Shown here: one piece after another, positions 1 to 61,349 of the stretch
Layout of the letters: the number at the start of each line of letters is the position of its first letter
Numbering within the stretch: the stretch's first letter is position 1
Assembly: GCA_008632985.1 (NCBI GenBank)
Contig: QPGO01000118.1
Location: 1-64,000, forward strand
Origin: Psammoneis japonica
Lineage: Eukaryota
DNA: 64,000 bases
Direction of reading: 5' to 3'
Program-made: the position numbers and the translations under genes
The notes under the pieces: model-generated
What the model was told of the DNA's origin: nothing
Seen by the model: only the letters and a program-made list of their open reading frames with translations
Databases searched by the model: none

Positions 1-1742
1 CGGGGGGCGAAGAACGGGAGGTCGTCATGGTCGAGTTGTCAAAACGCGTTTTTTTGTGCAGAGAAAAAGAGCTCCCAAAAGTGCACTTCCGACCCCTTGG
101 TTTTTGGTGGCCAGAGTTTTAGGGGAGAATGTGGTTCAGGATTTTTCCTGCTGCTGTTGGCATTTGTGTGCAAATGCACAAACAAATGTGAGGACATTTA
201 TCTCACGCACGCAGTGCGCGGTTGTTAGACTGTGTGGGTGTGGGTGCACGTGTGTGAGGTGCAAGTAGAGCATGCGTAGAAGTGCTGCTGAGTGAGTTGA
301 CATGCGGTGGATTTTCCGCCGGTGCACAATCTGCGTGGTCCACATGGAAGATAAATTTGTGTTGATCTCCGAAGCTTTTGCATGTCATTAAAATTTCTTT
401 CGTCTTTAAAATGCACGTGCCGCAATTCAAAAATCTCACAGAACACCCCGAAAGAACTCTGGAATCCGGATAAAAAAAATTTCCATTTAACGGTGCGAAC
501 AGAGTTGTCACGAAGTGCTTCTCAAAACAACTTGAAATTGTGTGTGGTGAAACATCTGCCATCACCAAAACACAGTGACTGTCGGATGAATAGATCCCGT
601 GTTCTTCATGCGCAAACAACACGACAACACACAACAACACCATGGCAAGAAACGCGAACGCCATCCCCTCATCTACAAGCTGGGAATGCAAGACACTGTT
701 GAAGTGGTTGGACAACATGTGTGCGCTGCACTCATGGGTCAAGTTGGGTTTCTTCTCGCTGCTTGTTGTTGCGTCATTTTACAACGTTTTGACCCACGCC
801 GTGTTCTTTGCTTTCTTGCTTCTGCTGCTCGTGCGCAACCAACAGCTCTTCCTGCAGGGTGTGGCTAGTTGCACGGCTGCATCGAACCCAAATGTGCGTG
901 ACCAACTGGCCCTGCCCCGGCTGGCTCACACAAAAATGTGATGAATGAGATACAAACTGCCGCGCAACCATGACATCACCACATTCTCCCCCACCACAAG
1001 GGTGTTGCCGATCGTGCCACTGTCACCCAAAAGATCTCGGCCGTCCACGCAAGATCCAAGATCAGTCTGAAGTGTCGTCTGTCGAGAGCAACAGGAGCGC
1101 AACGGTCAGATTTGAAAATGTTGTGCCAGGATCGTGCAGAATCCTGTGCATTTCGGACCCAAAATGCGGTCCAGCCAAGTGAACAAACGCGAAATGCCAG
1201 GTTTAGGATGACCGATGGCGCTTTTGCAATCGCATCTGTGATGCGCTTGAATGATTCCTTTTTCTCACGCTTGGTCCATCGGACGAGCTCCACATTTCTT
1301 TCTTTAAAGACCTGCATCGGCACATGCAAGTTGTGCTTCCAACTGACGCAGTGTTCAACTGATGCACACTGGTTGAATTGGTTGCCAAAGCAACTACAAA
1401 ATGCCATGGTGCTTTTAAGTGCGCAGCAGCTCTCTCTGCTCTAGACAGCTGGATCACCTGTAGAGAATAAAGAGCGAAGGCATGCACCCGCTGGATGACA
1501 GCATGCGGCACAGACGGCCAGGGAGTCGCCTCAAATCTGTTGAAAGTCTAAGCTGTCCCGTCGCGCTCGTGCGTGCAGGCGCGGTGCATCTGATTCCCAC
1601 TGATGACTCTGGCGAAATGGACATTTTTGTGCGCTGCAACACATGTCCGTTGAAGACATTTAATTGCCCTTTCCTTGTGTTAAAATGTTCAGCATCAAAT
1701 GTTGCATCTTGAGTTAACGGTCGTGACTCAACGGACAACCGA

Positions 1743-1935
1743 CTTTCAACAAAAAGTTGTTGAAAGTTAGATCTTTCAACAAAAAAGTTGTTGAAAGTTA
1801 GATCTTTCAACAAAAATCTGTTGAAAGTTAGATCTTTCAACAAAAATCTGTTGAAAGTTACATCTTTCAACAAAAATCTGTTGAAAGTTACATCTTTCAA
1901 CAAAAATCTGTTGAAAGTTATGCTTTCAACAAAAA
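1743..1935. repeat. Tandem array of ~30-bp quasi-palindromic units (ctttcaac-aaaaa..-gttgaaagtta), about 6.5 copies
   Basis: Directly visible head-to-tail units, each with an 8-bp inverted repeat ctttcaac/gttgaaag; no unique spacers. Confidence 0.9.
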
Positions 1936-2984
1936 CCACATCGACACGTGTGGAGACATCGTTTTTAGGGTTGCACTGCAGTCGGGTGACACAAAAGTCA
2001 AAGATCGTGACGAGAACAGCATGAGCGATGCACACCTTGCCAAAGCCTGAAAGCATGGCGTGAAGTTGGCTTAGCAGCTCAGTGCTGGTTTGGTGGTTTT
2101 TAGCAGAAGCAGTTTAACAATGTTTGTGGTGGCAGTTTCAAAGGTTGTGGCGGCAGTTTCAGAGTGCAAAGCATGGCAGTTTCAGAATTTTCGGCTGCAG
2201 CAGTTTCAGAATTGTCAATTTCTTGAAATCTGCTGGCAGTGGAGCACCTTCGATGGCTCCAAGTGAGCCGCCGTCTGGTGTGCTTCGAACCAAGCAAAGC
2301 TTCCACCTGGCAGTGATCTGTCTCCGATCTCACCCAGTGCATGGTCAGGCACCATCTACAGTTCTAAGCGAGAATCATCCCAGTGCCAAACCATTGGCCA
2401 CTCCATCCTCTGAGCCCAGCAATCCCATCCACCATTCCGAGTCTGGGTCCCAGCATGCTGTGCATTGGGTGGTTTCATCCTCGGATTGTGAAAGCGCCAA
2501 GTCACGAGCAACTCCGTCAGTCACACCGAGGTGTGGACTTGGCTCAACACGTCACGTCTCATTGAAATCAATGGAGGACTTAGAAGTGAGAATGTTGGTG
2601 ACAGCACCACTGAGAATCGAGTGGCACTGGCCTGCATGCTTCGTGCATGCCATCAAAAAAAAATTGAAATTGCTTCGAGGTTTCAAACAAAACAGAAATC
2701 CACAATTCTCAATGACACACAATGGGACCAACCCAGAAGGATGCATTGTGCAATTGCTCCCAACAATGAAAAAAGAAACAGGGAAAACGGTGCAAGCATC
2801 GTTGAGACATTGCGCCGCAAAGTGGACACCGTCTGCTCGCTTCATTGTGCTCGCTGCAGTTTGCTGAGTGTGGCAAAGGTGCCACAGCAAATGCTGCGTG
2901 CAATGATGAACAAATGTCAGTCATGCACACCTGTCTTAGATGACGTTGCTTTTCCAATCAGATTTTTGTGCCGACAAGTTTTCT

Positions 2985-3184
2985 GTTGAAGTTGTTGAAA
3001 GTTACGTCTTTGAACAAAAAGTTGTTGAAAGTTGCGTCTTTGAACAAAAAGTTGTTGAAAGTTGCGTCTTTGAACAAAAAGTTGTTGAAAGTCACAACTT
3101 TCAACAAAAAAGTGTTGAAAGTTAACGACTTTCAACAAAAAAGTGTTGAAAGTTGACGACTTTCAACAAAAAGTTGTTGAAAGT
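2985..3184. repeat. Second array of the same 29-30-bp unit family, same orientation, 6-7 copies
   Basis: Units ctttgaacaaaaagttgttgaaagttgcgt and ctttcaacaaaaaagtgttgaaagtt. Confidence 0.9.
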
Positions 3185-3360
3185 CATTTGGCGACAAACA
3201 CTGCAATGACTTTCTTGTTGTCGAAAGCTGCAAAGCTGTGGAAATGAGCAACCATTCATTGCATGTGTGTGATGGGCAATGGGCCAAATTTTGCACAGTC
3301 CAATTCGCCAACAGTGTCGCAATGCAGACATTGCAAAATTTTGTAAAGTTGTTCAAGAAT

Positions 3361-4042
3361 GAATCCCCGTGGGATTCCCGGCCACTGCCTCAGCGGATCA
3401 GCACCTCGATGACGTGCAACAGTGATCCACAGCACTGGATCTAGGGCGTGCAACAGACAGCAGTGGTTGCACCGTAGAAGCAGCAGCCAATGGGAACCCG
3501 GACATGCGAGTCTGAAGGTCTGCAGCAATGTAGCCTGGACAAAATGGAGGACATCCGGCACTGTGCCGAAACAGCCAGGGTGGGAATGAGGTGGGACAAT
3601 TTTGCAATGAGACATGGTCGCTGCAGTGGACCATGGTTGCACCCCTCTGATGCTGACTGCCAAGGGAACAATGCGTGGATTGGTCATGTCTGGGATCTCG
3701 TCACGTCCGTCTGTCCTCCGTCCTTGGCCTCCCATCTGTCCCTCGCTAGTCCACCTCCGCGATGACCCCCGCAACTCACCCAGCCACAGCTTCCTCTCAT
3801 TGCTTGGCTTGGAGTCTAGGGCTAGAAGAATCCCCATGGGATTCCCGGCCACCGCCTCAGCGGATCAGCACCTCGATGACGTGCAACAGTGATCCACAGC
3901 ACTGGATCTAGGGTGCACAATGGACAGCAGCAGTTGCACCGCAGAAGCAGTGGCTGACAGGAAACCGGATGTGCGAGTCTGAAGGTCTGCAGCAATGCAG
4001 CCTGGACAAAACAGAGGACATCCGGCACTGTGCCGAAACAGC
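3361..4042 (-). repeat. 3' split direct repeat block: B2 3361-3575, A2 3598-3667, B1 3828-4042
   Basis: B copies align without gaps over 215 bp; A2 is identical to 12126-12195. Confidence 0.9.
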
Positions 4043-4456
4043 ACATGTCGAGCCGACGCAGCGCATGCGCCTGACAGTGAAACACACCAGAGGCGTGCGC
4101 ACGTCCGCGCCCATGTCATTGGAGGTGAGATCCACCGGAAAAAAGAAAAAAAAGAAAAAAAGAGAAAAAAAAGAAAAAAGAAAAAAGAGAAGAAAGACAG
4201 ACAAAAAAGAGGGGAGCACGGCAGAAATGGAAGAAAAAGGCGGTAAATCGCCACAACTTTCGCACTGCCTCCTCACTGAGGCACATCATCTGTGGCATGA
4301 AGTTGTCAATGAAAATTTCGAATTTGAAGTCGGAACCCATTGATGCACAAGATCAACAGTGTGCGAGCTGATGTCGCCCAGAGAGGGAATGGGTCGCATG
4401 ACACCCGTCTTCACACCCCAAGTTTGGGAGGCCACTTTGTCAGGCACAGTCCCAAT

Positions 4457-5533
4457 TTAGAACAAGTCTGGAAGGGAAACAGCCTTGTCAATGGCGTCGT
4501 TCTTCACCTCCGCAAGGATGTTCATGTTCCGCAGGTGTCTCATGAATGTGCCCGATCTCCAGCAGAGCTCATGTTTAAGGTCCACTGACGACATCCCCAT
4601 GCTGTGGTGCACGCAGCATGCTCCAATTCGGTGCGAGTGGCCAGTCCAATGCTTGACAGCATCGGCATCTCGTGCCGGGTGCAGGGAACACAGCTTTGCA
4701 GCGACGTCCCGAAGTTCCTTTGCAATGTCATTTGCGGCAAGCAGTTGCAGACCGTCCTTCTCGCTTTTGTGTGTCAACAAGGGTGTCTCACAATCGTTCC
4801 GTCCCCGCAACCGCACAAAATGGCACATGATCTGGTGCATCGCTTGGACACAGCTGATCTTCGACGACGCCTTGTGTTTGAATTTGATTTCTTGACCGTT
4901 GTCCCCATTCTTCAGAGTGCGGAACTTGATCCACATCAGATCAATGCTGCTCAGTGGGGCATCGGCAATGTCCACTCCTTTGCGGCGCTTCCTGTCCTTT
5001 GTTTGGATTCAAACATCATGCAGAGCAAATGCTTCGGTGTCGTTCTTGAAATTTTGTTGTGGGTGCTGTGGGCTTTTCTCATTTTTTGACTGAGCATGTT
5101 CACCGCACCGCAAGCCACCAGACAGCGCTGCTTGGCTCCAATCGCCTTGGACAGCAACGAGACCATCCGGCTCCTTTTCTGCTGCGACCTCCCCACGGCG
5201 GATCTGCTCTTGTGTCATCTCCGGGGCAACAGGCTCGCGGCAGTCAGGTTTGTCCTCATGCTCCTGTGTGTGTTTAAACACATTCTTGAGTGGGGGACAG
5301 AACTCCCTCTCCATGGTGTTCATCTTCCGTGTGTCCCTTGCGACCTTGCCAAACAACGCGCAGAAGGTCGCCACTGCAAGCAGGCACTGCTTGATTGTGT
5401 CAAGCTTGATCTGCTTGCAGAACAATGTGCTCCCTGAAGCAAGATGCAACGCATGGGTTGCCATCATGCATTGGCACCTTTCCAGGGAAAGGTTCTGCAT
5501 TGTCATCCCCGGATCGTCCTTGTGCCAATTCAC
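4457..5533 (-). pseudogene. Tyrosine recombinase of the YR retrotransposon, disrupted; catalytic Tyr replaced by His
   Basis: GGLRCGE (catalytic R), HSHRIGAC (HxxR), CWRSGTFMRHLRN where the nucleophile Tyr position is CAC at 4535-4537; split over ORFs 5009-5533 and 4457-4975. Confidence 0.85.
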
Positions 5534-8400
5534 ATCATGGGCGAACCAGAAGCAATGGATTCTGCGCGAACGAACTGTCCCAAATTTCTTGGGATCTCAA
5601 CTGGCGCCGCTGTTGACACTGAGAACAGAGTGGAGCAGAGGCCCTGTGGCAGCTCAGGACTCGGGAGGAAACAGTCCCAGTCCTTCATCACAGGCCACGT
5701 CTGACACATCTGAGCATGACGAATGCAAAGAGGAAGAGCAAAGTTGGGTTGGCGCGAAATGGCATCCGCCAACTCACTCAGTGTCCCCGCAAGCCATCGA
5801 GCGTTGTGCCCGATCCCCGAGTCACGGAGGAGTTCACAGAAAAAGGCAATGACAGCCTGAGCATTGCGCGACGTAGAAGATGCCTCATTGCTCCATTTCA
5901 CGGAGGTGGTGTCATCACATTCGGCAAGTGTAACTGGCCGAGGGGGCACCCCATTCGGAAAGCAACTTTCCGCTTGTTGCCTCGTCATGTTGCGCAGTCT
6001 CATCATAATTCCTGCGAATTGGACAACCACAATTGGGAATTCCAACTGGTTGACATGGAGATGCCCTTGCGTTGATGGCCGAGCATGATTGACCCCATGC
6101 AGAATGCGTTTGCTCCATCCGATGTCAAACCAGAACTTGAGCGTGGGGCAGAACCCACCCCCCCCAGAGTCCGCACAGGCGTCCCCCCAACTGCGGACAT
6201 CGGGGTCTCTTGGCACAACAAAACCAATGTGTTCTGAGAAAGAGTCAGGCGTTGTCTGAAGATGATGCCCAATCAGGACGAGGGAGTGGCGGAGCACGTC
6301 CGACATGCGAATCTTCACTCGCGTTCGCCAGAGCAATGCCGCCATCTCTTTCACGACGATCTGATCAACTCGCTTGCGCTGAGCATTCGGCAGCTGGTGG
6401 AGAATTTGTTCCATCCTCACTTCTTTCTTGTGCTGTCGCCGAACCACATGGAACCGTTGTTTGAAGGTGGCTCGCATTTCGTTCTGAAGTTGGAAAAAAA
6501 GAGGACGTGCCCAATGCACGCATCTCGTGTGATTCTCGAGCAAACCATTGAGACCAGCGGCGTCCACCAGGTCGCAAGTGACAACAGTTTCAATCCATGC
6601 TGCAAGTGTTTCAATCAGCTGTTCCTTTTTGTAGTCCAGCATGCCAGTTGCTGGCGCACAAGAATTAAAGGCCCGCCCGACCACTCGGCCGGTGTGCCCA
6701 AACAGAGTGTTGAGTTTCTCCGTGCTGAGACTCGACGGGACTTCCTCTTGCAGAAAACCCAACACACAGAACAGGGAGAGGGCACTGGCCATCAACGTCC
6801 AAGGCAGGTGCTCCCTCACGTCCGCACACATGTTGTCATCAACATGATGCGTGCAAGGCGGCGCCAATCGAAAACCCTCTTTGTTGTGTGCACCTCTGTC
6901 AGTGGAATCTGCAGTTGCAGGTGCAAATGCTGCAATTTCCTCGTTGCCAGGTGCCTCGCAATGTCAGATCTCCGGCACAAACGGAGCAGTCATTTCAATT
7001 GCTTCCGATGAATGCCACAGCATCCACGCCAGCTGCTGATGTGCCGTTGCAATGACTTGCCAATTTGATGGGTTCGTGTTGTCCCCAAAATTGTTTCCAG
7101 TCTGCAATGTCCCAAACCCTGCCTGGACACTGGCATGCATCGAAACCAGGTTTGGTGGGTGCTCATTGTTGCAAAAAGCCCCCCCGACATCATCGTCTCC
7201 AATCATGATTTCTTCCGTCGGACACGAAATGCGCAAGTTGTAGATCCATTTCATGAGATCCATCTCTGCACTTTCGTCCGAAAGCGGAGGTTCCGCATCT
7301 TTGGAAATCCAATCATTGACAGCCACACTCCACTTCTCTGGGCGAAAAGAGCTGTCAAAAACAGGGTGAGGAGTCTTACACGGTTTGTCCAAATCGATGA
7401 TCCCTTGAGGCGTTACATGACAGTTGAGCAGAAACGGAATCAAGCGCCGATCAAATGGGATTGTGCAGCCCCTCTTCACGTCTTTCACCACCGTTTTAAG
7501 CATTTTCTCTGGATCAGAGTCGACACTTGAATGGTTGCCATGCCGGAAGCATGCTTGGAAATTCGATTCCGTCGATGTTGCATTGCAGAATGACGGCGAC
7601 CCGTGTCGGCACACGGCAACCAGTGGCTTCACATGCTGCTCATCGAGCACTCCACTCAAAAAACGCTCAATCGCGTCAACATGGCGGTGCTGTCCGACGT
7701 GAGGACCGCCAATCCACCGGACAGCAGCAGCTGCGTCCCCGTTAAAATGCAGCAACGCTGCGGACGCCATGTCCACACGTTCCTGGCTCACACTGGTGAC
7801 ATTCTTCCAATCTTTAGTGTGTCCTCGAATTTCTCCGAAGTTGACATCACCATGTTTTGCCAACAGAGCTGTGAACTCCGTGACCTCAGGGATCGCTTCC
7901 GCGAACTGCGTCCATTCCAACACAGTCAGAAACCCCGACTTCTGCAGTGGCATCAGCGCATGTCGCAAACACGCTTCTGCAAGAAAACACTGCGACATTG
8001 ATTCCTTGCCAAATGGTTGATCCAACACTGCTTGAACCAAGGTCAGGAGATGCGTGCTCTTCCATGCCTCGCATTCCACCTTTCGAAACGAATTGCCAAT
8101 GGTGGGAACCAAGTCTTGTGGTGACCCGAAAGTGTCCTTTGTGACCTGTGACAGAACTGGGTAGAAACCTTCCAGTTCGGGAAGCGGATCCACCTTGCTC
8201 CCTGTTGCCTCGTTGGTGTCTGCCTGTGACGGTTCCACGGCCAGACCTGACGACATCACAGGATCAAATCCCAAACTAGAAGCCAATGAATCGGACAACA
8301 GAGGAAAGATTGGACTGGCATTGTGCAATGCTTCTTCATTGCAGTGACAAACAAACACACAAAGATCAAAACAAAGGATCAGTTCGTTGGTGCACACCAT
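5530..8400 (-). pseudogene. Reverse transcriptase / RNase H of the YR retrotransposon, disrupted
   Basis: DDDVGGAF, FGDNTNPSNW, HHVDD (YVDD position, codon CAT at 6844-6846); RNase H motifs WGDAC..GGGG, HVNQLEF, CDDT, LADAISR. Confidence 0.85.
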
Positions 8401-8471
8401 CCATCAGAGATGGAAACAGCAGAGGACAGTGTCACAACCGACGATCGTCTCCAATCGAGCGTCGCTCATGT

Positions 8472-11189
8472 TCAGACAGTTGCCTCACCAGTGGGGCCTT
8501 TTCCAGGTGCAAAACTGAGTCCCTCAGTCTCTTTAACCCAGCCACAGAACTGCTGCTCCTTTTCATTGCCCAACACTTTAGCATTCGTGACATGAGGCTT
8601 CGCACAGTTCGCATTGGCACAGAAATGCCCAACCATCATGAAGTTCGTGCAGCAACGCTCTTCTGCCCTTGAGTTGCGAGACTTCTTGGCATGGACTGGG
8701 CAGGTCTGCGGTGGCTTGCCACTGCCACTGTACACAAGGATGCCAAGCTTCTCACGCTTCTCCTTTTCTTCATCCAAAAGAAGCGTCTTCTGCTTTTTCT
8801 TGGCAGGCTCAGATGCCTCACCATCCGCAGCTGCCGCCGGGGTGGACTTGTCTGACTTGGTCAATGCCAGAATGAGCTTTCTGGCAACGTCCGTGATGGT
8901 GTTGTAGCGTCCCGGGCGGCCCGACAAGATTGCTGTCTGCAACTCCGCAGCAAGCTGCTTCGCGATCACACTCGCCTGGTCGTAGATCCTTGGATCCATG
9001 GCATCCCCAGTGCCAATCGCCTTGCGACACGCTGGCTAGTTGCCGACAATCAAATGCTCTGCCAGGACATTCTGAATGTCCAACAGTGCATTCACCAATG
9101 CCTGGGGTGATTTGGCATTGCGTGCCAGCCACTCGGCGCCACGCTCCGAGTCGAGCACGTCGCAGTGCGACTTGACCGACTTCCACAATGCAGATTGGTC
9201 GAAGTCCAGTGTCAGACACAGTCCAAAAGCACGAAGGTTGCATGCTGCAGCAGTGACATCCTTCGGCGTGTTGATCCTTCCCTGAGCACACAGAACTGAC
9301 GACTTGAGGGCAGACAGTTCCACACCCGACTTTGACTGACTGCGCTGCTCCTGCAGCGGGAGACTGGAATGTTCATCCATGATTGTCTCCCACGTCGAAG
9401 TCGCCGTGTCAGGTTCCAGAAGAAGAACAATGGAAAACTTGGACAGTGGAGCCTGCACGCTGTAGGTTGCAGGCTGCGCATGCACGTGGAACGAACGCAC
9501 ACTCGTGGTGAACGCTTCGTTGATCACCTCATGCGACAAGTGCGCCGACTTGTCCAGAAAGGAACCGCTCGCATGCAACCCAGCCAAGACTTGGGTGACC
9601 AGATCCAAAAATTTGCGGGTGGCCACAAATTTGTCAGTGACCTTGAGCACCACCACGAATTCTGGGCGCAGTTCTCCAAGAACAAACGTCGCTTCACCTG
9701 TTCCACCAGGCGGAGGAGCAACACACCCCGCAACCAACCCCCAGCGCCGGGTGTGCTCAGCAGCAACCTCGAGATGCTCCTCTTCCTTCTGAGCAGGGGG
9801 ACGGGGTGCCGCGGCAATCCCTTGACACAATGCCACAATTTGGTCGTTCGTCACACCGCCATTGTCACCATCATCCGCATCAGCGTCTGCTCCTGGGGAG
9901 CCCCATGCCAGGGCATCAAAAGCCTTCATAGACTGCTTGACCGAACGGCATGAGTCCATGACAGGCGCCAGGATGTTCACATCGACGCGTTCCAGCTCTG
10001 GGTGGGACCTCGCACTGCTGAACTGTGACATTGACAGTTTTTTGAATCTCGTCGCATGTCGCGCACGTAGAATTCTACGTGATTTTTTGACATTTTGTGT
10101 CATTTTGCGGCACACTTGTTGAGCGATCCGTCCAAAAACTTTTGACATTTTTTGTTGCAGCGCAATTCTGTGGTGTCTTAAGAATCGCGCAGGGCAGGTG
10201 CATTTGCAAAAACGTCGAGTGGCAAGAGGCACAATTGCACCACAAACTTGGCCGTTTGTTTGATGTTGAAGACAAACACATCCATCAATTAAATTCTCGC
10301 ACTGCGGAGCTCGCACGCAGAATTCTACGGGCCAAATGTCACACGGAGTCCCACCCAGGGCTGGAACGCGTCCATCATCCACTTGCAACAGACGATCCGA
10401 GATGTCGAAACCATCGAAATCCGCAGCATCGTCAATCTGGCTCGCATTGAACAAAGGGCCGCCCTTCGCAGCCAAGCGCTTGTCGTTGTTTGCTGCAATG
10501 TGTTGCATGCCACGCTTCCATGCAGCTCCCAGAGGGAAATCTGCGTCCAACTCCGGAGTGGGCTCATCCACAGGAATGCCGCTGGGGAAAGTCTTGCCTG
10601 GCGGCAAAGGCAGGAATGGCGGCAGTGCAGAAATCCGCAGATGGTCGTCCACAGCCGCAGGTGGCGGGAAGTGCAGACGCCCCATGGATGCAACCCAGTC
10701 ATCCTCCGGCAAAGTTGTTGGACCGTCAACAACATCCGGTGCCTGATCCGACTTGGGAAGGTGGAAAGCCATGACCGATCGCAGCGCGAGGAGCGAAGTC
10801 ATCGATGCTCGAAAGGAGTCGAGAGCAATGGAGACTGGGGCATGACTCCCAATCTCGTCCGACAAGCTCCCAATGATGGAGGCAGTCCCTGCCGTCGAAG
10901 TGAACACTTGAGGGCGGGTGAGAATCATGATCCGCTTTGAGTGCACGAGTGCAAACTGGGTTGCTTTCGTCGGATCAGATGCGACAGCGTGGCGAACCTC
11001 ATGGTTCACACCCGGTCAAAGCGCAGAAGCCAGGACCATTGCGTTCTCATCAGAGAATGGAAACGCTGTTGTGTGGTGCTGGCCAGCAGCACCACGACCC
11101 CGCTGGACAGCAGCGGCGGAAGGAGCAAACACAGTTGTTGAACAACAACTTCACGGTCTCGTTGCAAATGGCCGACTTCGGAAATTATG
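8472..11189 (-). pseudogene. Gag-like ORF of the YR retrotransposon with a C-terminal Cys/His zinc-finger-like motif, interrupted by a MITE and a stop
   Basis: Position upstream of RT; ORFs 9036-11009 and 8472-8999 in the same frame separated by TAG at 9036-9038; CTNFMMVGHFCANANCAKPH. 5' boundary approximate. Confidence 0.6.
9984..10372. mobile_element. MITE, 389 bp, 25-bp TIRs, 4-bp TSD (CATC)
   Basis: gacgcgttccagctctgggtgggac (9984-10008) versus gtcccacccagggctggaacgcgtc (10348-10372), 1 mismatch; CATC at 9980-9983 and 10373-10376. Confidence 0.85.
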
Positions 11190-11748
11190 AGGAGTCCCTC
11201 TCACAGTGTCCGGCCGTGAACTCTGCAGGTGGAGCATCCTGTCCACAACTTTCGAAAATCGTGATTAAAACGGAGATGACACGACACGATTCCCATGGTG
11301 TTTAGTTCGGATTTTCAAAATTTTCAACGGCTGCAAACAATGTGAACCGCGAACCCTGTGTGACGGTTGCTCTCAAGCAGGCACTGGTGCTTGGAGGACC
11401 CAACACGCTCCGTGCCTGCATCGAAACATTCGTGGCGCCGACAGACATGTCACATGGTCGAGCGCCAAGCGTGCGGGACCGGCAGTTGAACAACTAGTAT
11501 GCAGGAAAGAGAGATGCCATTCTCAGGAGGCACGCATTTATGAACATGTTGACAGTTCCACCCTCGTCCCAGCGAGGGGGTTGACCATGGCCGACAGCAT
11601 GCGGCTGTTGCCGCCGGCGAGGGAATGACCCGCACACCGAGCGGTTGTCAGGAAAGTGGCGTTTGGTTACATAGAGGAGACCGTCCTCTCAATAGCAGGC
11701 ATTGCCGCATTGGCATAGTAAAAAGGAGAGGGGTCGGAAACAACGACT

Positions 11749-22874: not shown

Positions 22875-22878
<4 letters not shown>

Positions 22879-22914
<36 letters not shown>

Positions 22915-22920
22915 AAGAGA
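22879..22920. repeat. (GA)n microsatellite
   Basis: About 16 perfect GA units followed by GAAA variants. Confidence 0.95.
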
Positions 22921-39170: not shown

Positions 39171-39243
39171 CAAGCAGCAGTGAGCACCTCCATTTTGTGG
39201 AAAAAAAAAACATTGAACAATTGAGTTGATGGACATGTTTCAA

Positions 39244-50035: not shown

Positions 50036-50167
50036 CATGTGTGGATCTTGAGTTTAATTGATTTTAAACGCAACATGCATTTCGCTCACAACTCTTGGTT
50101 CCGACTTACAGTGCAGCACTTCTCTGGGTCTCTCGGTGGCCTCTGCCGGTGTTGCAAGCGCGACGAC

Positions 50168-53100
50168 TCAGGGACTCCCTGGGAGGCAAGCAGACACCAA
50201 AATTTCCGTGATGACAAGGTCGTTGAGATCAATTTTTCCTTGGCACAAGCTTTGCAAGATGTGTCGACGTCCCAAGCTGCCCCAATCTTCAAGGGTCGAC
50301 TCATTGGAGAATGAAAATGCCGCCGCAGGCTTTTGGATGTCATGGTGGCAAGCACACAGAGACCCATTTTCCATTGCTTTTAAGTGTGCTGCTGCTTTCA
50401 CACATGTGTGAACAGCACAATCATTTGGCCCTTGTCCCGCAGGTGGAGGAACAAGGTGCTCGATGCCGGGTCTTTCTGGACAGAGTGGTGCACCAACAAG
50501 CTGTTGGCGCAGCTGTTGCAAGATTGCATGGGGCTGGAGGCTATCCGCATGCACCAGAAGCTCTCTTGTGTCACTGCTGGCAGTTGCTCCTTCAAAAGAA
50601 CAATCAATGAAAAAATTTGACCAATGTCCGGCCGTGTTAGATCCAGAAAAAATGGGCATGAGAATGACTTTCGATGTCTCCCAGCCTCCAGACTCGTCAT
50701 CAGCAACTGCTTTCACCCATCTGTCGACATCAGCCCAGCTGCATCGTCGTAGCTGGTTGTAAAAATTGGTGTTAACAACTCAAATGCCAAGTCGAGAAAA
50801 TTGCTGTTGGAGCAAGTTGTGATGCCCCTGTGTGACGTTGTCGTTAATTAGAGTCCCGCTCCAAAGCAGGTCCCACACGTTCGGCGCATTGACAGGAATG
50901 CCATGAGGCAGCCTCAGCACATCAATTTCTCCAATTGCACATGTGCAGTTGTTGTGGTCCACTGGCACTTGCGTTTTGCTCTTGTCCAGCAAAACCTCCC
51001 ATTGCTGATCTCCATTTGTTGGCGTGTGATCTGGCGCGGAGGCAGCCGACTTCACTGCAACCTCCACTGGTTTTCCTCGTTTCCCCACATTCGTCAATTT
51101 GTCACTCCGTTTTCTTTTCAGCTCCTTCTCCTCTCTTGCGCATTGTGCGGGCTGTTTTAGGATGCCATTTCTGCCACAGAACTCACACGAAGACTTGTTG
51201 TGTCCACCACAAATGCTGGCCCGTGCATTGCAAAGACCAGTCCAGGCACACTGCCTGCACGGATCTGACGATTCTTCCTTTCTAGCTTTTTGCTTTTTCG
51301 TGCTCAGAGCATCTTTGCCACAGTGCTTGCAACTTCGTCGTGTCCAGCCATTGCACTGCCATGCCATGTGCTTGCAACCTAAATCCTGACAAGCGCAGGC
51401 TCTGCTTTGCTGCATTGACTTAAATTCAACTTTTTGATGAGGGGCCTGAACAGGAGCAACGCATGTTGAGGCTTTGTCGTCATCACCTCCCAGTGTCGAG
51501 AATTCGGGATTGGATTTCTGTGACACTGCTGAAGGTGGTGGAGCCCTTTGCAGGCAGAGACTCTGAACAATTTTGTTGCACTCGTCCTTCATTGTTGATT
51601 TTGCGTGCTTGATGGCTTCTCTTCCTTTGTCCTTTTCGTGATCGGATTGGACCGTGGAAACAGTTTTGGGAAAAATGTTGATTCCATTAGATCATTTCTT
51701 GTGTGAAGTCATCAGTCGCTCAAAATCAGATCGGTCGGGTGCTCCTGTTGAGCTCAATGACCATTGTTTTTGCATGATGTGGTCTTCCTTTGTTTTGTGT
51801 GGAAGGAAGGGGGTGCCGCAATCCAAGATGCTTCGCCATGAATTTTAAAGACGGAGTCAACACTGGATCTGGCTCATCAGCGTGCTCCACAAATCTCGGA
51901 TCTAGTGTTGCCTTTCCAACTCCAACCCAATCAGTTTGGGTCGGCTTCATGTTCGACAGATTTGTGTGACTGGGAAGCACAAGTGCATTGAAGAGTTTTT
52001 GAACAATGTTCTGCAACTCATCAAGTGTGTGAAGATACGGGTGGCCAATGTTGGGCTCGCCACAGCGCAAAATGCCGGTGTTGACATTGCAGTGGAATGT
52101 TCGGAGCACCAACAGACAGTGTGCAGTTTCAACACCAATCGCTTGACCAACCAAAAGCACCCAAAGTTTCTGATGGAAATTTTCTAACCTGTTCGTTCCG
52201 CTGCCACGCCACCAGAGTCGGAGCCCATCAGAATCTGTGCCTTTCTCTCTGCAAACTGAAACATCGGGAACAGGCTCAAACCAACCTTTCTCTGCTTTCA
52301 TTGCCACACTGACAAACCATTCATCAAGTTCTGGGGTCAGATGCAGCTTGAATGCCTCACTCTCTTGAACAAATTTGTGTGCAACTCGGAGATTTGACGC
52401 GTGGACATCTGCAACGGGACACGGCATGCGGACGCGAGTTCCAACGTGCTCCTTGTTGCAGCACTCATGCTCTTCAATGTCTTCTGGAGAAAAGCCTTTG
52501 GATTTCAACACCTCACACATTGGATTGCAGTCTTTGTCATTCCCAATGAAGGATGCCTCTCGGGCGAGTTCATGCAGGTGGGGAGCAACCGGGCAATCCC
52601 GACGCACGGGAAGTGCACCCATCACATGAAACACATCATTTTTAGCACGGCTACGAAGCTCATTCTTTACATCATCATCAAGGTTTGAAGCCTCGAGAAG
52701 CATGTCCAAGATTTTGTCTGGTGTTGATTTATCCTGGTCGCCAGACGTCTCAGCAGTGTGCGTTTCGGCAGGGTCAGATGTAGAATCGGGCGCAGAGTGC
52801 GGTGCATTGAGCTCTGCACGAATGGTCTCCCTCCTTCCTGCCGCATCATTTTCTAAATGCTCCACAGGCAACTCTGTGTCAGGTGCTTCCGGTGGCGGTG
52901 TTCGAAGATGGCTCGTCTGGAGAACCACTGCATCAGAGCATCCCCTTCTGCAAACGTCTCCGATCGGTGTGCCCTTGCTGCAGTTAGGCTCGACAGCATC
53001 GTCATCCGCAAATCCACACAGCAGCTTCCATGATGGCACCAACACTTCATCAATTTGCACCAGTGCTTTTCCTTGGCCCACAAGCTCGCCGCCATGTTTT

Positions 53101-55449
53101 GTCGACACTCCCATGCCTCTGTAGTTGCCGATTCGAACAACGGCCCTCTGGCTACGACACGTCCTCCACCAACTATGTCAACCATGCTGCCAGGCTTCAC
53201 TAGATTAACCTCTGGCGGCTGACACAAACCTCCAAGCTTTGCAGAAACAAGTTGAAGCAAGCGCACTGTAAGCAGTCTGTGTGCTATTGCATCAGTGGCT
53301 GCGTGTCTCAGTGTCTCCTCGTCCGGGTTGCGCGACGACGACTCGCTCTCATAGTCGGTGTTTTGTCCGGTCTCTTTGTCCAACAATGTGACATTCAGAC
53401 AACGCTCACACAGTGCCTTGACTCCTGTGGATCCACCATCATCATACGTTTTTGCTATCTCTCCAATCTCCAAACGATCATTGACTTTGATTCCATGACC
53501 CCTGAGCAGTCGATTCACATCACCACCAATTTGCCTGCCGCATGGAATGAGCCGTCCATCTTCCAATATTTTCTTCAACCAATGTGGGAACGCCTTCATA
53601 GCATGTGTGTCATTCACAATAACAGGCAAGCCCTCGAAAGACACTTGCAGCCAACACACGGCCGCTTCAACAGTACGGCCACGGTTCCACTCCGCGTCGA
53701 GCCCATAGTACTTTCCGGAAGAACTAGTATGGAGATTAATAATGTTCTCATAATGCTCCTGGAAAAACTGATTTGCATCGGCTGCATCACGAAAATAATG
53801 AAAACTATCACGTGGCAATCGTAAGACCGGTATGTTAGATTTAGGGATGTACGGGCTAACGCCATCCTTCAGCTCTGCGCAAGATAGTGTGGAAAAAAGA
53901 AGACACAAGGTAAGAAAAAAGAAGCACACATTATACGCTTTAAAACAGGAGAATAGCAAGTATTACCTTCAAAACAACGATTCGCCATATTCAAACCGCC
54001 CTTTACATTGTCCGTGTCGAATCGGCCGAGCTTCGGTGCCCCTTGCGCCTTCCTTGCCGCTTGAACGCGACGGAGCATGGGTTAAACTTCGTCTTGCCCT
54101 TTCCCAAATACAGGTAAGCTTGCACTTACTTTACCAGATCCTGCCATGAGATTGCACGACGCAAGGAACGGTTTCACCTGGCTACCATCGGAAAGGTATG
54201 CTTGAACCTTACTCCAGTACTTAAACGTCTCGTCAATAGCAATCTGTGCATCTTGGTTATACTCAAACGAACCCTGCATGTACTCCTCCAGCACATCCTC
54301 CATAAATATATTGAAGCTGTTTGCAACCCTAGCGGCTGACAGTCGTATCCCGTTGTGTGCTCCTGGCTCCGCAAAAGCCGAGTATGGGACAATATCCTGT
54401 CCACGGTATCCAATAGCTTCAACTGGATCCCACCCCAGAAGACTCTTATAGTAGCTGCGTTGCTGCCGAGAATAATCAAATGATCGTGTCTCATTAACCA
54501 TCGATGAAAATGTACCAGAAAAAACAGAATGATTAGCCAAACGGGACAAGCACAACACCATACTCTCGTGCATTCCGGGCCCTCGGCGACTTGTGACGAA
54601 ATCAAATCTCTCTGCTACCTCCGGAGGTAGCTTTGACAAATACAGAGGGTCAATGGTAGCAAATGATTTAGTAATTTTTCCATCATCATCCACCCTGCCA
54701 CAGCAACCTTGGGAGAGACAAAGGACACGATGATGAAGTACCCACGCGGTTTTCATCCACTCAACCATCGGTCGGAATACCAGTCCCTTTGACTCGGTGT
54801 TGGTATCACCACAAAAAGCACAAACATACTTGTCTGGTAAGTGATTCGGATAGGCCATTGGCGGAAACCAAAGATATACCCAGCAACTTCCAAGGTACCA
54901 CTTGTCAGGTTTTGGTGACGAACCCAAAGCAGTACTCAGCGGATCGCAAGGCGGTGGTATCCATTTCACGCCGGATTTGATTTTTGTCATCATTTCACCA
55001 TCTTTCTTTTGTACTTTTGCTTTGATCTTACTCAAATAATTATGGATGGGAGTGTCCTCGGGGGGCATATAGGAGTCGCGGTGGTACACCGCCGACTGCT
55101 GCGTCTCTTGCATAGCAACATCTCGGTCAAGGATGGCGTTGATCTCATCTTGATCGTCCGGGGAACACGGTGCTGCCACCAAACCAGGAACAGAGTATCG
55201 ATTACCTGGATGTTCAAATGTAGCTTGAAGGGCTGGAACAGCTCGCTGTAATGCCTCTTGATACCTATGGCGTTTTTCGTCGGGCGAGAGCTCCTTATCG
55301 GCACGACGTCGAGTGTTCTGCTTTGCTGCCTCAAAAACAGGATACGAAGCTCCCGTTTTCTTCTTTTTCGAATCTACAAAGCTCTTAGATCGCCTGTCAC
55401 CACCAGCACGATGCCCTGGCTTGTTCTTGCTATTCTTTGGACGACCCAT
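50168..55449 (-). pseudogene. DDE transposase with embedded DEDDy (WRN-like) 3'-5' exonuclease and C-terminal Ulp1/C48 protease, disrupted
   Basis: Cys-rich N-terminal domain; IAIDETFK (D1); in-frame TAA 54082-54084; FDTDN (D2); intron 53966-53875; GLDAEWN..LQVS..GGDVNRL..HAATDA exonuclease; NDVFH (DxxH); GTNRLENFH (E); LINDNV, GHWS..DSL..Q.PNDCAV protease. Confidence 0.8.
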
Positions 55450-55912: not shown

Positions 55913-56128
55913 AAGCAAGGTGGTCCTTGTTGTCATGAATCAGCAATTTTTGGATTGAATCATTTCGGGTCTGTCGTTGCGTCGATCTGTGGCTCGCTTG
56001 CTTTCAAACAACCACTAGGATAGAAAACCAAACGACGCTAATTTGGTTTGAACATGATGCTGTTATGCTCTACATTGAATGATGATGCATGTGAAAGCCA
56101 ATCACAAGCCATGCATCCCCTTCATCAT

Positions 56129-59100
56129 TCATGCCCCTGCCTCGCCCGGTGCCATCTCACCCGCTGCAAGGTCCCGCTCCCAAGACACCAACTCTTGTTC
56201 CCATGTGCTAATGTGTGAATCCCATTCTTCCTTGGTGATGGTAACTTTGTTTTTCTCCAAGCGCTTCAGGAGTTCCTCTTGCGTCCCACTTGTCGGCAGT
56301 CCTTTGAATCGAAGCACCGTTTTCATGACGTCCGCAGGTGGTTTTTTAGCTGCCGATCGAACAATGTCCCAATGTTCTCCCGACTTCTCCTTTCTAACTT
56401 TCTCTGCATCAACAATCCAAGTTTTGCGCTTTTCAATTTGTCCTTCAAACCGTGTGATTGACTCCGTGGTCTTCTTTGCTTCTTGTTCTTGTTGAAACTT
56501 GAGCATGCCCAAATGAGTGGCAGCTGAATCAATTCCATGCTTTTGTTGTGGAACCCCCATTCCTGGTCCCTTGGTCCGATTAGATGTGTCTTTTTTATCC
56601 CCCCGTGTTGAAAAGAACAAATCCGCAACAGCTTTCTGCGCAAAAAGACTCATGGCGCCCTCGTCACGCCGCGACACCACGACGTCAATGGGGTCGACCA
56701 CGCCGTCAATGTCAGTCTCAACTCGGTCAACAAAGGTGGCCTCCGAACAATCAATGAGTCTCGACAATGATTCTTCTGCATTCTGCTCGTACGTCGATTT
56801 GTTGCCGTTGACAGCACAATTTGCGACAATTTCGTCGTGCGCACGTCGGGCAAGTTCCTCCAGGGTGCTTGAGCGCTTTTTCTTGAAACGCACGAGAACA
56901 AAAGGAAATGCGCGTCAAAGAATAAACTTGTGCATGCAAGAGAAGCAACACAAATGTGAAACGCACCATTGCCATTGCCTTTGCCATGTCGTTTTGTTCC
57001 ACTGCAGTCTCTCGAGCTTTTCTTGCTTTCGATTGGAACAACTTTCTTTTCTCCTCGTCTGAGATGACCGCTTGAGGGCGCCGCACTTTGTGCTCTTCAC
57101 TGTGAGCAAAAGCTTCAATGGAAAGATCCTTTGCTCCTTCTCCAGGTACAAACAGCAGAAATTGATCTTCTGATTGCTTTGTGGCTGTAGACTCCTTGCC
57201 ATCTTGGGTGCGAAACTTGATGGAATCACACAGCGCGACATTGCGCAGGACATTGACAATTGTTGATGCTACAACCTCCTTTGGATTCGATGGCAAAGAT
57301 GGCTTTGTGTCAATGGGCTCATCAGAGCGAACAAAATGACATGCTTTCATTGCCGCGACGCATGCTTCACCCAGCTGGTTCCTGATGCGACCCTTCAGAC
57401 TCTCGGGGTTTTCTCCATGCCTGAAGAATTCGCCCGTCTCCTCGTCTCTGTGGTTAACAAGGAGATTCAGCAGCGCGTACGACCGCTCAACAAAGCCGTC
57501 GTCCATGCTCAAGGATCCTGGCTGGCCGCAGGTGAACGACTCGGCGGGTGCGACAGCCTGAATCCAGGACTTTTCTTGGTCGGTGAGCGGCTCCCGGTCA
57601 ACGCGAACACGGGGGCACCAAGTGCACGGCTTGTCCTTGGGCGGCCACCAAACTTCTCTTGTGCCGCCTTCTGCTTTCGGGCATGGAATTGTCCCAAGGC
57701 AAGCGCGCACTCCCAACCTTTGCAATGAGGGTTGGGAGGGTAAATCCCAGTGAACTCCACACCTGACATGGCCTTGTTCTCACCAGTGGGACCAACAATG
57801 CTCAGCCTTTCCTTGTCAAAGAACTTGGTGAGGCCTGATCGAAGCATTCTATTTAACTCAAGCTGACCACTTGACTTTGCAGCAATGTCCATTCCCGACA
57901 ATCCACGAATTTCCTTTGCTGCATCGGCGCAACAACGGTGGATCAAATGGTCAATCCCTCGGTCGTTTGGTTGACCAAAAAAGCCAGCCTGGGATGGAAG
58001 AAAAATTGGATGCACGTCATGTCGTCTGAGGAACCTCATGAATGCCTTGGAAAACCCAGAGCCGTGTCCATCAACAACAAGTGTGAAAGGCAGCTTGGAC
58101 ATGTCTCCTGAACCCAAACGACAGACACTCGGGTCTGCAGTCTCCACCAAGTGCATTGCATGCTCCATCAAAGTTTCTTTTGTCTGAGACCCATTGTCAG
58201 AGATGGAAATGTGAATTCCCAATGGGTTTTCTACGGCTGTGATCTCACCCTTTTCATTCGTCACAACGTCAAACATCTCTTCCATGAATCTAGACAGAAT
58301 GGGCTTGCCCTTGAGAGTTTCATCATCAATTTGATCAAGCATCTCTGCTCTTTCAAACTTGTCTTTTGGCACATCATTCTCTGCTCCATCACAAGCCCAA
58401 ATCACCTGGAAACCACACGGTCCTTTTTGACCACGGAGTGGAAAGTGATGCTGGCCTGTTGAAAAACACCGCAGAGTGAGCAACGAAACAGGTTCTTGCT
58501 CTGACGATTTAACTTTACGTGCCATTTGCACAAGAGGTGGCAGTGACAGCACCATGACCTTTTGTGCTTTTATTTCCTTCAGGAGCAGCTGTAACTTGCT
58601 GATGCTTGTTCTCACGCCAAAATTCTTCAGACACAAGTGCGTCATGCGCATGCCCCAGTGGACAAAAATTGAGCTCGTCCATGTTCGCAATGCACTCGGG
58701 CGGCACATCTGCAAACCGCTTCCAAGGCCACGCTTCCGGATCTCGACAACACTGCACATGGCAGCAGTCATCGATTGATGAAAAGAAAGTGTCGCGTGCG
58801 ATTCCTCGACATGCATCTAGTTTCTCCGTTCCAAGAGACGAAGACTTCCGCGCCCGGACCTTGTGTCGCTCAAGGCAGTGATCTGTCACACGGCTCGAAA
58901 CAGGCACAATGTCTTCAATGTTGACACGTAAAGAAATGATGCTGTTGACACCAGCTTCGAGGTCTCGCTTGTCTGTTCCAGCACCGGCCACAGCAAACTC
59001 ATCCAAGAGAGCAAATGAGAAGTGCTCTTCCGAATCTGTGAGACATCCATGCGACTCTCCAGGTTTCCCACCCCGTTGAGCAACCATTCCATCAACCATT

Positions 59101-59483
59101 TTTTGTGCAACAGGGTCTTGCCAACGTGTGCCTCGTTCTTTGAAAGAGCCAAGCAAGTGTTGTTCACAGTCCTTCTTGACGGTGTCTTTGTGGCGCCGAG
59201 TGAGATTCATTTGAGCACAAGCCACAGCAAAACTGTCTTGTCCGCCACGTGAATGATGTTCATCAAATTTGTCTTGGTAAAAAAGAGCTTTGAGTGCGTT
59301 TCGACAGTGTTCATCACTCATTTTCATGTGCTCCCGTCTAGATTCTACATCAGCACTGTCGATGTCAATTGCCATGCCAGAAAAGCTGCTAGCCTGACTT
59401 GTGATTGATGCTCCTGTGTCCCGCTGAGAGCCATGCATGAGTTGCGAGCAGGGACGCAATTCGGTGCTAGGAGGAGCTGACAA
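56129..59483 (-). pseudogene. Pogo/Fot1-like DDE_1 transposase with downstream SAP domain, TA-eroded and frameshifted
   Basis: IANMDELNF, SDNGSQT, LVVDGHGS, FLPSQAGFFGQPNDRG; SAP-like MKTVLRFKGLPTSGTQEELLKRL. Boundaries approximate. Confidence 0.75.
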
Positions 59484-61349
59484 TGCTCAACAAGGTGGTG
59501 GCCGAGATGGTGGAACTGGGGAGTTGCTTCGAGACGGCAAAGGGGAGACCCAACTCATGCTCGACAAAGACACCAAATCAGCAGGCGAGGAATGACACTG
59601 TTGCTGTGTGGGTTGAAATTGCACTTGCAGCGGTGGTGGCATTGAAGACCTTCGCACAGGGAGAGACAGAGTTGGTGAAGGACGCTGCCGCTGCGGCGGT
59701 GGCGGTGGTGGCGGCGATGCGGAAGCAACAACACGTGACGCCATGCTGCCATTTCTTTGTTGATGCCGCCACTGGCCAAATCCAGCATTGTTCTCACCCC
59801 ATCCAAATGGTGGAGGTTGCTGTGGCCAGTTCGTAGACAGAGGACGAGGTGAAGCATGATGAGGTGGTGGGGATGGAATGCACAGGCTTTGGCCACTGTG
59901 AGAGAGATCATCGGCACAAAAAGTGTGGCTCTTGGGATTTGACAATGCTGTCCCCGACAACACACCGAGAATGGCGGCCTTCCCTCAGAACAAGCCGCGA
60001 AGCCCATGAGCAGACATGGCTGGGACTGAAGGCCCATGCAGGGCTCTGAACTTCTGATCTTTTGATCCTGCTCCTTGGACGGAGGGGGTTGAAACGGTGG
60101 TCTTGCATCGATGTTGCTTTTTGCTTTTTCACACGTGGCTCACCAAAAAAGTTGCTGCCAACACCGGCCACATCTTTGACAAAACACAAGAACATTGACA
60201 TGTTTTATGATGCAGACGGAGTTGACAAAGCAACATAAAAATTTTAGAAAGAATTTGAGTGGGTGACATTTGCAAAACCTTCTAAATGCAAGTGACAGTG
60301 TGGTTTTTTTAGAACAAATTGAGTGGGTCACATCTGCAAAAAAGCTGCAAATGTTTTCCTTAAACCGTTGTCGTCAAATAACGAAGTACAAAAGCTTTCA
60401 TGCAGGTGTTCGGGACGTTTTTTACAGTTCACATTGTGCCAGTCGTAACTCCATGCTGGCATGGGGGGGGAACTGATGTTGATTGTGATTGATGCGTCAA
60501 CGCGCGCGACGCGTTGTTCATCGTGGACGTCTGCACTTTGCTCCCAAGGCGAGTTGAATTGGAGACTCGAGTCTTTTTCAGTTCGCCTGCCCCTCTCTTG
60601 CTTCCACGTGGCGATGAAACAGAACAAAACCCGGATGCATTGCGTTCAAAAACACATTTGAAAATGGTCTGGCAGTCATGCGGTCGAGGGGTCTCTCTTT
60701 TTCTGCACAGGCAAATGCGCACAACTCTCTAGAAAGTCCCATCGTTCTTTCTCGTTTTCAAATGCTCCGCCCCCAGTTGAAAAACACCTGCCAGACTTCG
60801 GGTGTGCGCGCACACGACAACGGTCGACGCATGGACTCACGATGGAGAGTGCGTTGACGTCCCTCACCATGACAGCTTGCACTTCCTCAAAGGCGCTTTG
60901 AATACAAGAATGGAACCGGCAATTCGAGTCGTCGTGGGAATGGAGACGGAGCAATGCACCGTTGTGTTGAGAATGGTCTCTTCTTCAAGTCCCCAGCAAG
61001 TGAACGACAGAATCGTCATTGTGGCGGAATCCGCAGAGACAACAGACCAAAAGAAATTGTTTTCTTTTAACGATGTGTGGTTGCCATCTTGATCTCATGT
61101 GTATTGCATCCACACATAAGATGGCTTGGCAATGCTCGGTCTCGAGTGAGTCCTCAAGTCCGGACTGATGGATGCCACACAGCACAAAGAAAACAACAGT
61201 TTTTTCTCTGACGGACGGTCGGACAGAAAAAATGGCGGGAAATGCGTCTGTCCACACAACCCGCAGACGACCGCAGCTGTTTTATTTTTCTTGTTCTCTT
61301 GTCATTCTTTTTTGCTTTTTGCGAACGCCTGTCGTTTACATTGACAAGA

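Follow-up and report, generated by a model that had tools for sequence, protein, structure and literature searches.

Domain-limited TpA hypermutation, probably of the kind described in Bigelowiella natans, in transposon-rich DNA of a diatom

What could remove the dinucleotide TA almost entirely from long blocks of a diatom genome, while the DNA between the blocks is far less affected? The question is raised by positions 1 to 64,000 of contig QPGO01000118.1 of Psammoneis japonica (the whole stretch that was analysed, here called the window), which carries a complete Ty1/copia-type long terminal repeat (LTR) retrotransposon, other repeats and several host genes, and in which the observed/expected ratio (o/e) is 0.26 for TA, 1.46 for TG, 1.45 for CA and 0.75 for CG over all 64,000 nt. 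A reading made from the sequence alone had proposed an A-to-G process that converts TpA to TpG/CpA in either strand of DNA that is silenced or repeated. We find that TA is the ancestral state and that TG and CA are the products, that both strands are affected, that TA followed by a pyrimidine (TAY) is favoured over TA followed by a purine (TAR), and that the changes are limited to domains that also bear CpG decay. Taken together, a DNA-level, domain-limited TpA hypermutation of the kind recently described in the alga Bigelowiella natans is the probable explanation, an assessment that does not extend to the deaminase step discussed below.

Counted per kb, TA o/e lies between 0.01 and 0.25 in 1-11000, 15001-28000, 31001-43000, 49001-53000 and 56001-61000, and between 0.4 and 0.87 in the DNA between these stretches. 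A two-state segmentation, used to delimit TA-poor blocks from TA-normal islands, yields five blocks that sum to 47,350 of the 64,000 nt (74% of the window) and five islands between and after them (16,569 nt); its boundaries fall within a few hundred nt of the low-TA coordinates given by the sequence-only reading. Block 1 (22..11487; 83 TA, o/e 0.12) holds tandem 30-nt repeats together with reverse transcriptase (RT)-like (HHVDD) and tyrosine-recombinase-like open reading frames (ORFs); block 2 (14796..28111; 71 TA, o/e 0.09) comprises the copia element, a stretch of very low CpG at 25001-27000 and a ROK-family gene; block 3 (31036..43257; 69 TA, o/e 0.09) holds a repeat pair (38109-38597 / 41459-41945) and CpG-poor stretches; block 4 (48037..53120; 47 TA, o/e 0.15) continues into an intermediate zone that reaches to ∼53700; and block 5 (56075..61336; 46 TA, o/e 0.14) includes 58533-60434, which a contig of sequencing run X1 matches with 0 differences. 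Pooled over the blocks, 316 TA are observed where 2901 are expected (0.11), with TG and CA both at 1.56, CG at 0.68 and a GC content of 0.505, whereas the pooled islands have 723 TA of 1124 expected (0.64), TG at 1.18, CA at 1.17, CG at 0.95 and a GC content of 0.479. Within the blocks, the summed TG and CA excess of 3,298 approximately equals the TA deficit of 2,585 plus the CpG deficit of 958, and AA is not depleted (o/e 1.23).

The block edges, with TA counted per 100 nt, are 100-500 nt wide: the count drops from 12 to 2 where the copia 5' LTR begins and from 7 to 1 at 31000, and it rises from 0-1 to 11 past the ROK gene, the graded exception being 53100-53700. Intergenic DNA that is rich in TA is spared within the islands. 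The earlier statement that TA is normal in the gene islands holds for the islands as such (o/e 0.64) but not for all genes, since the conserved host ROK gene sits in a depleted block and is hypermutated, and the 3' exon of an exonuclease gene lies in a zone of intermediate TA. CpG loss of the type left by 5-methylcytosine is superimposed as a further signature of lesser strength (CG o/e 0.68 in blocks versus 0.95 in islands), one that cannot remove TA. CpG is also nearly lost in 25001-27000 (CG o/e 0.11-0.26) and in 38001-41000 (0.11-0.36 for the two together, with TG/CA at 1.6-2.0); these CpG-erased sub-blocks could represent elements of greater age or heavier methylation.

The direction of change can be read from proteins. 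The copia pol ORF at 17518-20628 encodes 2 Tyr (0.2%), 49 Cys (4.7%) and 59 His (5.7%), whereas in the majority of its 150 best homologues these residues amount to about 3%, 2% and 4%, respectively. Compared at conserved columns with 76 homologues of at least 400 aa and at least 2% Tyr, it keeps none of eight conserved Tyr (three are His, encoded by CAY, three are Cys, encoded by TGY, and two are Trp) but 166 of the 209 other conserved columns, among them 24/27 Gly, 13/14 Asp and 5/5 Trp. In a pairwise alignment with the closest homologue (P0121), the Tyr residues of the latter stand opposite Cys nine times, His eight times, Phe twice and Tyr once, and seven further close homologues give the same pattern; Cys and His replace Tyr in similar numbers in both copia pol and ROK. 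The positions at issue in the motifs FWPHA and FLGH are Tyr in 48 and 38 of the 76 homologues, respectively. Homologues that are themselves poor in Tyr (<2%) make up 16 of the 150, and these carry no organism names. Conserved Arg has become Gln or Cys in 3 of 16 copia columns, and in pairwise alignment Arg is found opposite His, Cys or Gln, changes that point to CpG decay as a second process.

The Tyr counts that the sequence-only reading gave for copia pol (2, in an ORF of 1036 aa) and for the RT/RNase H ORF at 5530-6963(-) (1) were recovered; the ROK ORF has 0, and island ORFs have 11-20. Its quoted motifs are also found where it placed them, namely the His codon CAC at 4535-4537 in '...FMRHL', the His of HVDD at 6844-6846, the copia motifs FWPHA, FLGH, STTGC and CRTLLGELLHAHIVCRLDIGHAV, the exonuclease motif HAATDA (aligned opposite YAATDA of the WRN exonuclease) and, directly 3' of the 5' LTR, the sequence GGTTGTGG at the position of the primer-binding site. 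The MYND motif that it also listed has no counterpart among Pfam matches, zf-MYND being absent from every ORF of at least 110 aa in the window.

Substitutions were polarised at the DNA level on environmental relatives of the element. A scan of metagenome contigs for relatives of this copia pol gave 80 loci, with TA o/e <0.25 in 4, 0.25-0.5 in 16 and at least 0.5 in 60. Fifty-four environmental copies were projected on one locus (L015) at an identity of at least 78%, and the majority of 30 TA-normal copies was taken as the ancestor over 3,862 columns. In the depleted copies, A:T>G:C changes are found at 25-43% of the ancestral TpA positions versus 3-5% of other A/T positions; CpG is changed at 5-19%, other G/C at 3-5% (G:C>A:T), and transversions amount to 0.8-2.7%. 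CpG transitions range from 5 to 25% across all environmental copies. When seven depleted copies are pooled (L075, L059 and L053 being left out as near-duplicates of L072, L060 and L051), A>G changes are found at 320/983 A preceded by T (0.326), 65/1548 preceded by A (0.042), 125/2100 preceded by C (0.060) and 67/1936 preceded by G (0.035), i.e., A after T is changed ∼5-9 times as often as any other A. The rate at TpA is 0.42 with T, 0.43 with C, 0.17 with G and 0.23 with A as the following base, so that TAY is changed about twice as often as TAR, and the base two positions before the A has little effect (0.26-0.40). The changed A lies on the sense strand in 187 cases and on the antisense strand in 133. 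At 133 of 145 ancestral TA sites at least one copy is changed, and at 73 of these 133 sites both TG and CA occur among the copies, which therefore changed independently, starting from TA.

The TA that survives in the window follows the same context rule as the environmental copies: the ratio of blocks to islands is 0.05 for TAT, 0.12 for TAC, 0.19 for TAG and 0.31 for TAA, and ATAT and GTAT are almost extinct in the blocks (1/492 and 1/618). At the environmental loci, TA depletion spans the element and weakens into the flanks. Graded TA loss in related copia elements (L013, L032, L072 and L077 plus 16 further loci), beside TA-normal copies of the same family, is seen in several metagenome projects, and the process is therefore also at work in natural populations of one or more other organisms.

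The two LTRs of one element are identical at integration. Those of the copia element (194 nt each with TG..CA ends, at 14717-14910 and 22173-22366) now have 18 mismatches, of which 10 form five TG<->CA doubles, 3 are TA/TG, 3 are of CpG type and 2 are other; the differences are mainly at TA-derived sites, and the changes therefore arose after integration. A direct repeat pair in block 1 (3361..4042, as 3361-3575 / 3828-4042) has 22 mismatched positions, 16 of them in eight TG<->CA doubles, with 2 of TA/TG type, 3 of CpG type and 1 other. For the two repeat pairs we estimate that ∼82% and 89% of the TA sites once present in each copy are now altered, as against 1% and 0.5% of other sites, on the assumption that hidden double changes in the same direction are as numerous as the visible doubles and from small counts; roughly, this would put the rate at TpA a few hundred-fold above background.

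The ROK-family (fructokinase-like) gene at 26794..28256 on the forward strand, recognised by its Pfam match and homologues, consists of two ORFs that can be joined through a candidate GT..AG intron of 71 or 80 nt starting at 27785, with the frame staying open. It contains no Tyr, where 120 homologues average 2.2%; all five conserved Tyr in ORF 1 are His or Cys, as is the single one that falls within the valid portion of ORF 2. The gene keeps 116 of 149 conserved columns, and changes of CpG type are found at the invariant positions E130K, A248T and V244M. The protein is most likely dead. In Nitzschia sp. Nitz4, scaffold 4 carries ROK and phytochelatin synthase ∼35 kb apart, as in the window (going by record names), and because this linkage is common to both, ROK is not a mobile copy. 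All named relatives of ROK are from diatoms (Nitzschia, Pseudo-nitzschia, Seminavis, Mayamaea, Epithemia and Cylindrotheca, plus one MMETSP record), as are those of the phytochelatin synthase gene at 61212-62498 (Nitzschia, Seminavis, Fragilariopsis, Pseudo-nitzschia, Cylindrotheca and Asterionellopsis), with best identities of ∼60% for both. The spread of hypermutation has apparently killed the host gene ROK.

A process with this signature has one described precedent. The sequence-only reading knew of none, a view overtaken by a 2026 preprint that reports de novo TpA>TpG/CpA hypermutation in mutation-accumulation lines of B. natans (Mettrop et al., bioRxiv 10.64898/2026.01.13.699255). According to the available text of that preprint, two silent viral inserts account for 231 of the 302 de novo mutations, which are A>G or T>C in 230 cases, and the GC-biased mutations were all at TpA, at ∼1000-fold background and in only some of the lines; the genome has 124 clusters of at least 3 kb that are TpA-poor and CpA+TpG-rich, a nucleocytoplasmic large DNA virus (NCLDV) insert has a Rho of 0.45, genes low in TpA show an excess of RT and DDE transposase domains, and the authors' candidate enzyme is an ADAT2 homologue (10.64898/2026.01.13.699255). 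As far as this text goes, the two systems share the restriction to A:T>G:C at TpA with TpG/CpA as products on both strands, the confinement to discrete foreign or silent regions beside normal DNA (here five blocks with copia and repeats, whose silence is assumed) and the TpA-poor, CpA+TpG-rich clusters that are left behind. They differ in that B. natans is a rhizarian, of another supergroup than the diatoms, which are stramenopiles; that the footprint is stronger here (TA o/e 0.09-0.15 over blocks of 5-13 kb covering 74% of the window); that the targets here are LTR retrotransposons, other repeats and one host gene; that there is a preference for a pyrimidine at +1, of which the available text of the preprint makes no mention; and that de novo events were observed there, where we see a footprint only. 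From this comparison we infer that the same kind of process is at work in both. A literature search returned no report of the TpA>TpG/CpA signature in diatoms and, for B. natans, only the preprint.

Fungal repeat-induced point mutation (RIP) changes C to T mainly at CpA and makes TpA. It resembles what we see in its outcome: heritable hypermutation by transitions at a particular dinucleotide strikes repeated or silent DNA and kills transposons, decay of methylated cytosine goes alongside, and adjacent or embedded host genes can suffer. It differs in that TpA is here destroyed and GC raised (0.505 in blocks versus 0.479 in islands), the reverse of what is expected of RIP; nor do these data hint at a trigger by duplication or at a sexual phase. 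C>T processes in general, RIP and 5-methylcytosine decay included, run in the wrong direction, since TpA is lost and the outgroups give TA as ancestral, and they fail, as the sequence-only reading had held, to account for the loss of TA. GC-biased gene conversion was also considered and rejected: in the depleted copies A:T>G:C changes outside TpA (3-5%) are as frequent as G:C>A:T changes outside CpG (3-5%).

In the explanation that we favour, the blocks are probably silent, transposon-rich diatom DNA altered by a TpA-specific A:T-to-G:C hypermutation that acted on the chromosomal DNA itself, once elements had inserted. Adenine in 5'-TA-3' would be converted to inosine by a TadA/ADAT-like or other deaminase-fold enzyme that is recruited to, or admitted by, silent chromatin, and replication would fix inosine as G. 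We put forward this enzymatic deamination of adenine in silent chromatin tentatively, its chances being, in our view, a little below even. The tRNA A34 deaminases find U33-A34 in every substrate tRNA, and TadA's own substrate is UAC, which fits TAY; the likeness of TadA and ADAT2-ADAT3 to the present case is one of context only, i.e., a target adenine preceded by U/T, and by default they are RNA enzymes, although an evolved TadA acts on DNA in adenine base editors (ABE). A further DNA-acting form is amphioxus BjADAT2 (cited in 10.64898/2026.01.13.699255).

Other origins of the pattern have to be weighed against this one. The same domain-limited process could run on thymine, with a modified T at TpA mispairing with G (5-hydroxymethyluracil or a base-J-like TET/JBP product, for instance) or with an unrepaired lesion at TpA in untranscribed chromatin, giving T>C at 5'-RTA-3'. 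The UV 'TA' photoproduct is a TpA-specific lesion, T>C at TpA cannot be told from A>G in the complementary strand, the TAY preference is RTA on the opposite strand, and the CpG decay in the blocks implies at least one base modification there. We nevertheless hold a thymine origin to be rather improbable: nothing in these data indicates thymine modification, TA-rich intergenic DNA of the islands is spared, and the blocks end sharply and show a rate excess of a few hundred-fold. The on/off behaviour among the B. natans lines, as the available text of the preprint describes it, also fits a recruited enzyme better than passive damage. Editing of transposon transcripts by an ADAR- or ADAT-like enzyme, followed by reverse transcription into the genome, is largely refuted, and we give it hardly any credence. 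ADAR hyper-editing does resemble the present pattern in its clusters of A>G in repeats and in a 5' U preference, which ADARs and tRNA A34 deaminases have in common (10.64898/2026.01.13.699255), and there is a modest excess of changes on the sense strand (187:133). ADARs, which are metazoan and act on RNA, favour a 3' G, however, and G after the A is here the least favoured base (0.17); both strands are affected. The LTRs of a single insertion differ mainly at TA-derived sites, and a non-mobile host gene, ROK, is altered at a conserved locus, which places the change in the chromosomal DNA and at a time later than insertion.

Error-prone synthesis by a Y-family polymerase during repair of heterochromatin (Pol eta-like, WA>WG), a candidate of the sequence-only reading, would give A>G at TA but also at AA. 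ApA is changed at 65/1548 and TpA at 320/983 (0.042 versus 0.326), and with AA o/e at 1.23 in the blocks this candidate is very improbable. Equally remote is the absence of any mutation process, whether because of an assembly or base-calling artefact or because the DNA was TA-poor from the start. Contigs of the sequencing runs were compared with the window over 44001-64000, and those of run X1, the only DNA run with the window, reproduce depleted DNA exactly at 58533-60434 (1902 nt, 0 differences) and at 52523-53399 (0 differences), with the reservation that X1 may be the assembly's own source sample and so not fully independent. The signature is, however, also present, in graded form, in environmental metagenome contigs of other projects (TA o/e <0.25 in 4/80 loci and 0.25-0.5 in 16/80), and the depletion is not an artefact of this assembly alone. 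An inborn composition, for its part, predicts neither the loss of catalytic or invariant Tyr nor the divergence of LTRs at such sites.

Against TpA hypermutation of the DNA itself, several points have to be set. The polarised DNA counts come from environmental relatives that are ∼50% identical in protein and not from this genome, and their ancestral state was taken from copies picked for normal TA, which is partly circular; the TG/CA split outcomes and the protein outgroups offset this circularity. Trp (TGG), which a single TA>TG step cannot yield, stands at 2 of the 8 conserved Tyr columns of copia pol. CpG could in principle also give rise to TG<->CA doubles; given how many CpG sites are kept relative to those changed singly, less than one such double is expected among the five of the LTR pair and among the eight of the block 1 repeat pair, and the doubles are therefore TA-derived. 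Chemistry on the thymine side would yield an identical pattern, the silence of the blocks is assumed, and the data carry no indication that the process still runs. The window contains no deaminase Pfam match and no visible enzyme, in agreement with the sequence-only reading, which saw no responsible enzyme there.

A consequence of TA loss concerns reading frames. The blocks contain 252 TAA and 190 TAG triplets but 2,144 TGA, and there are 166 stop-to-stop ORFs of at least 110 aa in the 64 kb, many of them overlapping and on both strands. Long ORFs persist in dead elements since TAA and TAG disappear without new ones arising, and because this loss makes ORFs abundant on both strands, long frames are no sign of function. 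In such genomes, gene finders would over-call genes, and transposon annotators would under-call elements because the mutated proteins escape Pfam.

The copia element (14717..22366, forward strand) is complete by its LTRs, its 5-bp target-site duplication GCACT on both sides and its Pfam matches (gag-pre-integrase, SH3 and RVT_2); GGTTGTGGCC lies just 3' of the 5' LTR and the purine tract AGGGGAGGG just 5' of the 3' LTR. The gag-pre-integrase/integrase part of pol, also supported by Pfam, is the 1036-aa stop-to-stop frame at 17518..20628 (forward), and the RT part carries on in other frames at 20629-21420 and 21186-21995. In block 1, ORFs bearing HHVDD and a GHSHRIG...WRS...FMRHL box look like a tyrosine-recombinase retroelement, for which 'DIRS-like' is a lead; RT/RNase H clusters for the ORF at 5530-6963(-) are likewise a lead, from the Atlas only. 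The RT-like and recombinase-like ORFs of this block have zero Pfam matches, even at E up to 10, and a homologue search with the ORF at 5530-6963(-) returned only two proteins, both unnamed. The 30-nt tandem repeat of block 1 forms two arrays of five copies each (1725-1980 and 2929-3184), ∼1.1 kb apart.

By Pfam, the island genes encode an RsmB-type methyltransferase, a lactonase, a WRN-like exonuclease, a phytochelatin synthase and a rhomboid protein. The 3'-5' exonuclease (WRN/DNA_pol_A_exo1-like) exon at 52853..53962 on the reverse strand, also identified by Pfam, falls within the graded edge of block 4; at the Exo III tyrosine it has His (HAATDA), in contrast to the Tyr of WRN. It is part of a two-exon gene (52853-55455, reverse strand), as a spliced contig of run X2, with a 92-nt CT..AC-bounded gap at 53874-53967, links it to an upstream exon at 53967-55423. 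Contigs of X2, a run labelled 'DNA?', skip three short GT..AG or CT..AC segments of the islands, like spliced RNA; for 48670-53338 and 56007-61342 cover by X2 is not listed, which is not evidence of silence. No RNA run is listed as containing the window, and run X3 contributed no contigs to the comparison. X1 contigs differ from the window by ∼1% in the islands at 44001-48000 and 60967-62769 (e.g., 10/843 nt), and X2 contigs match there exactly; the organism appears to be heterozygous, with two haplotypes. On blocks 4 and 5, the 328 X1 contig records comprise 163 at an identity of at least 99%, 71 at 95-99% and 94 at 90-95%, and parts at least of these blocks are therefore repeat families or a second haplotype. 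The changes between window and X1 contigs are symmetric and cannot be polarised (A>G 75, T>C 86, G>A 78, C>T 62). The summed depth of X1 contigs is very high at 48003-48669 (925) and at 60009-61342 (218-367), and contig joints connect ∼48450-48720 with ∼60790-60850, which suggests one high-copy repeat family on either side of a 12-kb segment that contains an expressed island.

The locus thus adds a second, distant lineage to a recently described kind of hypermutation, and the mutational reading first made from the sequence was right: A:T-to-G:C change at TpA, affecting either strand of DNA that is silenced or repeated, is what the protein outgroups, the polarised DNA and the LTR and repeat pairs indicate. 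What is new here is the near-saturated footprint, the rule of TAY over TAR, the action after insertion and the host gene caught in a domain. To our knowledge, genome defence by RIP-like mutation has been regarded as peculiar to fungi, and hardly any natural A-to-G editing of chromosomal DNA is known. The only earlier report is one preprint on one rhizarian alga in which, by its available text, the long-term footprint is weak; the present data widen the phenomenon to diatoms, among the most important of marine primary producers, with ordinary transposons and a host gene affected, and make a second lineage available for finding the enzyme by comparison. More speculatively, and on balance we think it unlikely, diatoms and chlorarachniophytes might share an ancient chromatin-guided DNA adenine-editing defence, opposite to RIP in its chemistry, that reads silent chromatin and not repeats as such, prefers 5'-TAY and can spread to neighbouring host genes and kill them. 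If this were true, a shared defence that erases TA at several hundred times background would shape gene loss and genome composition, and its enzyme would be a natural DNA adenine deaminase that comparative genomics could name, other diatoms perhaps being without it.

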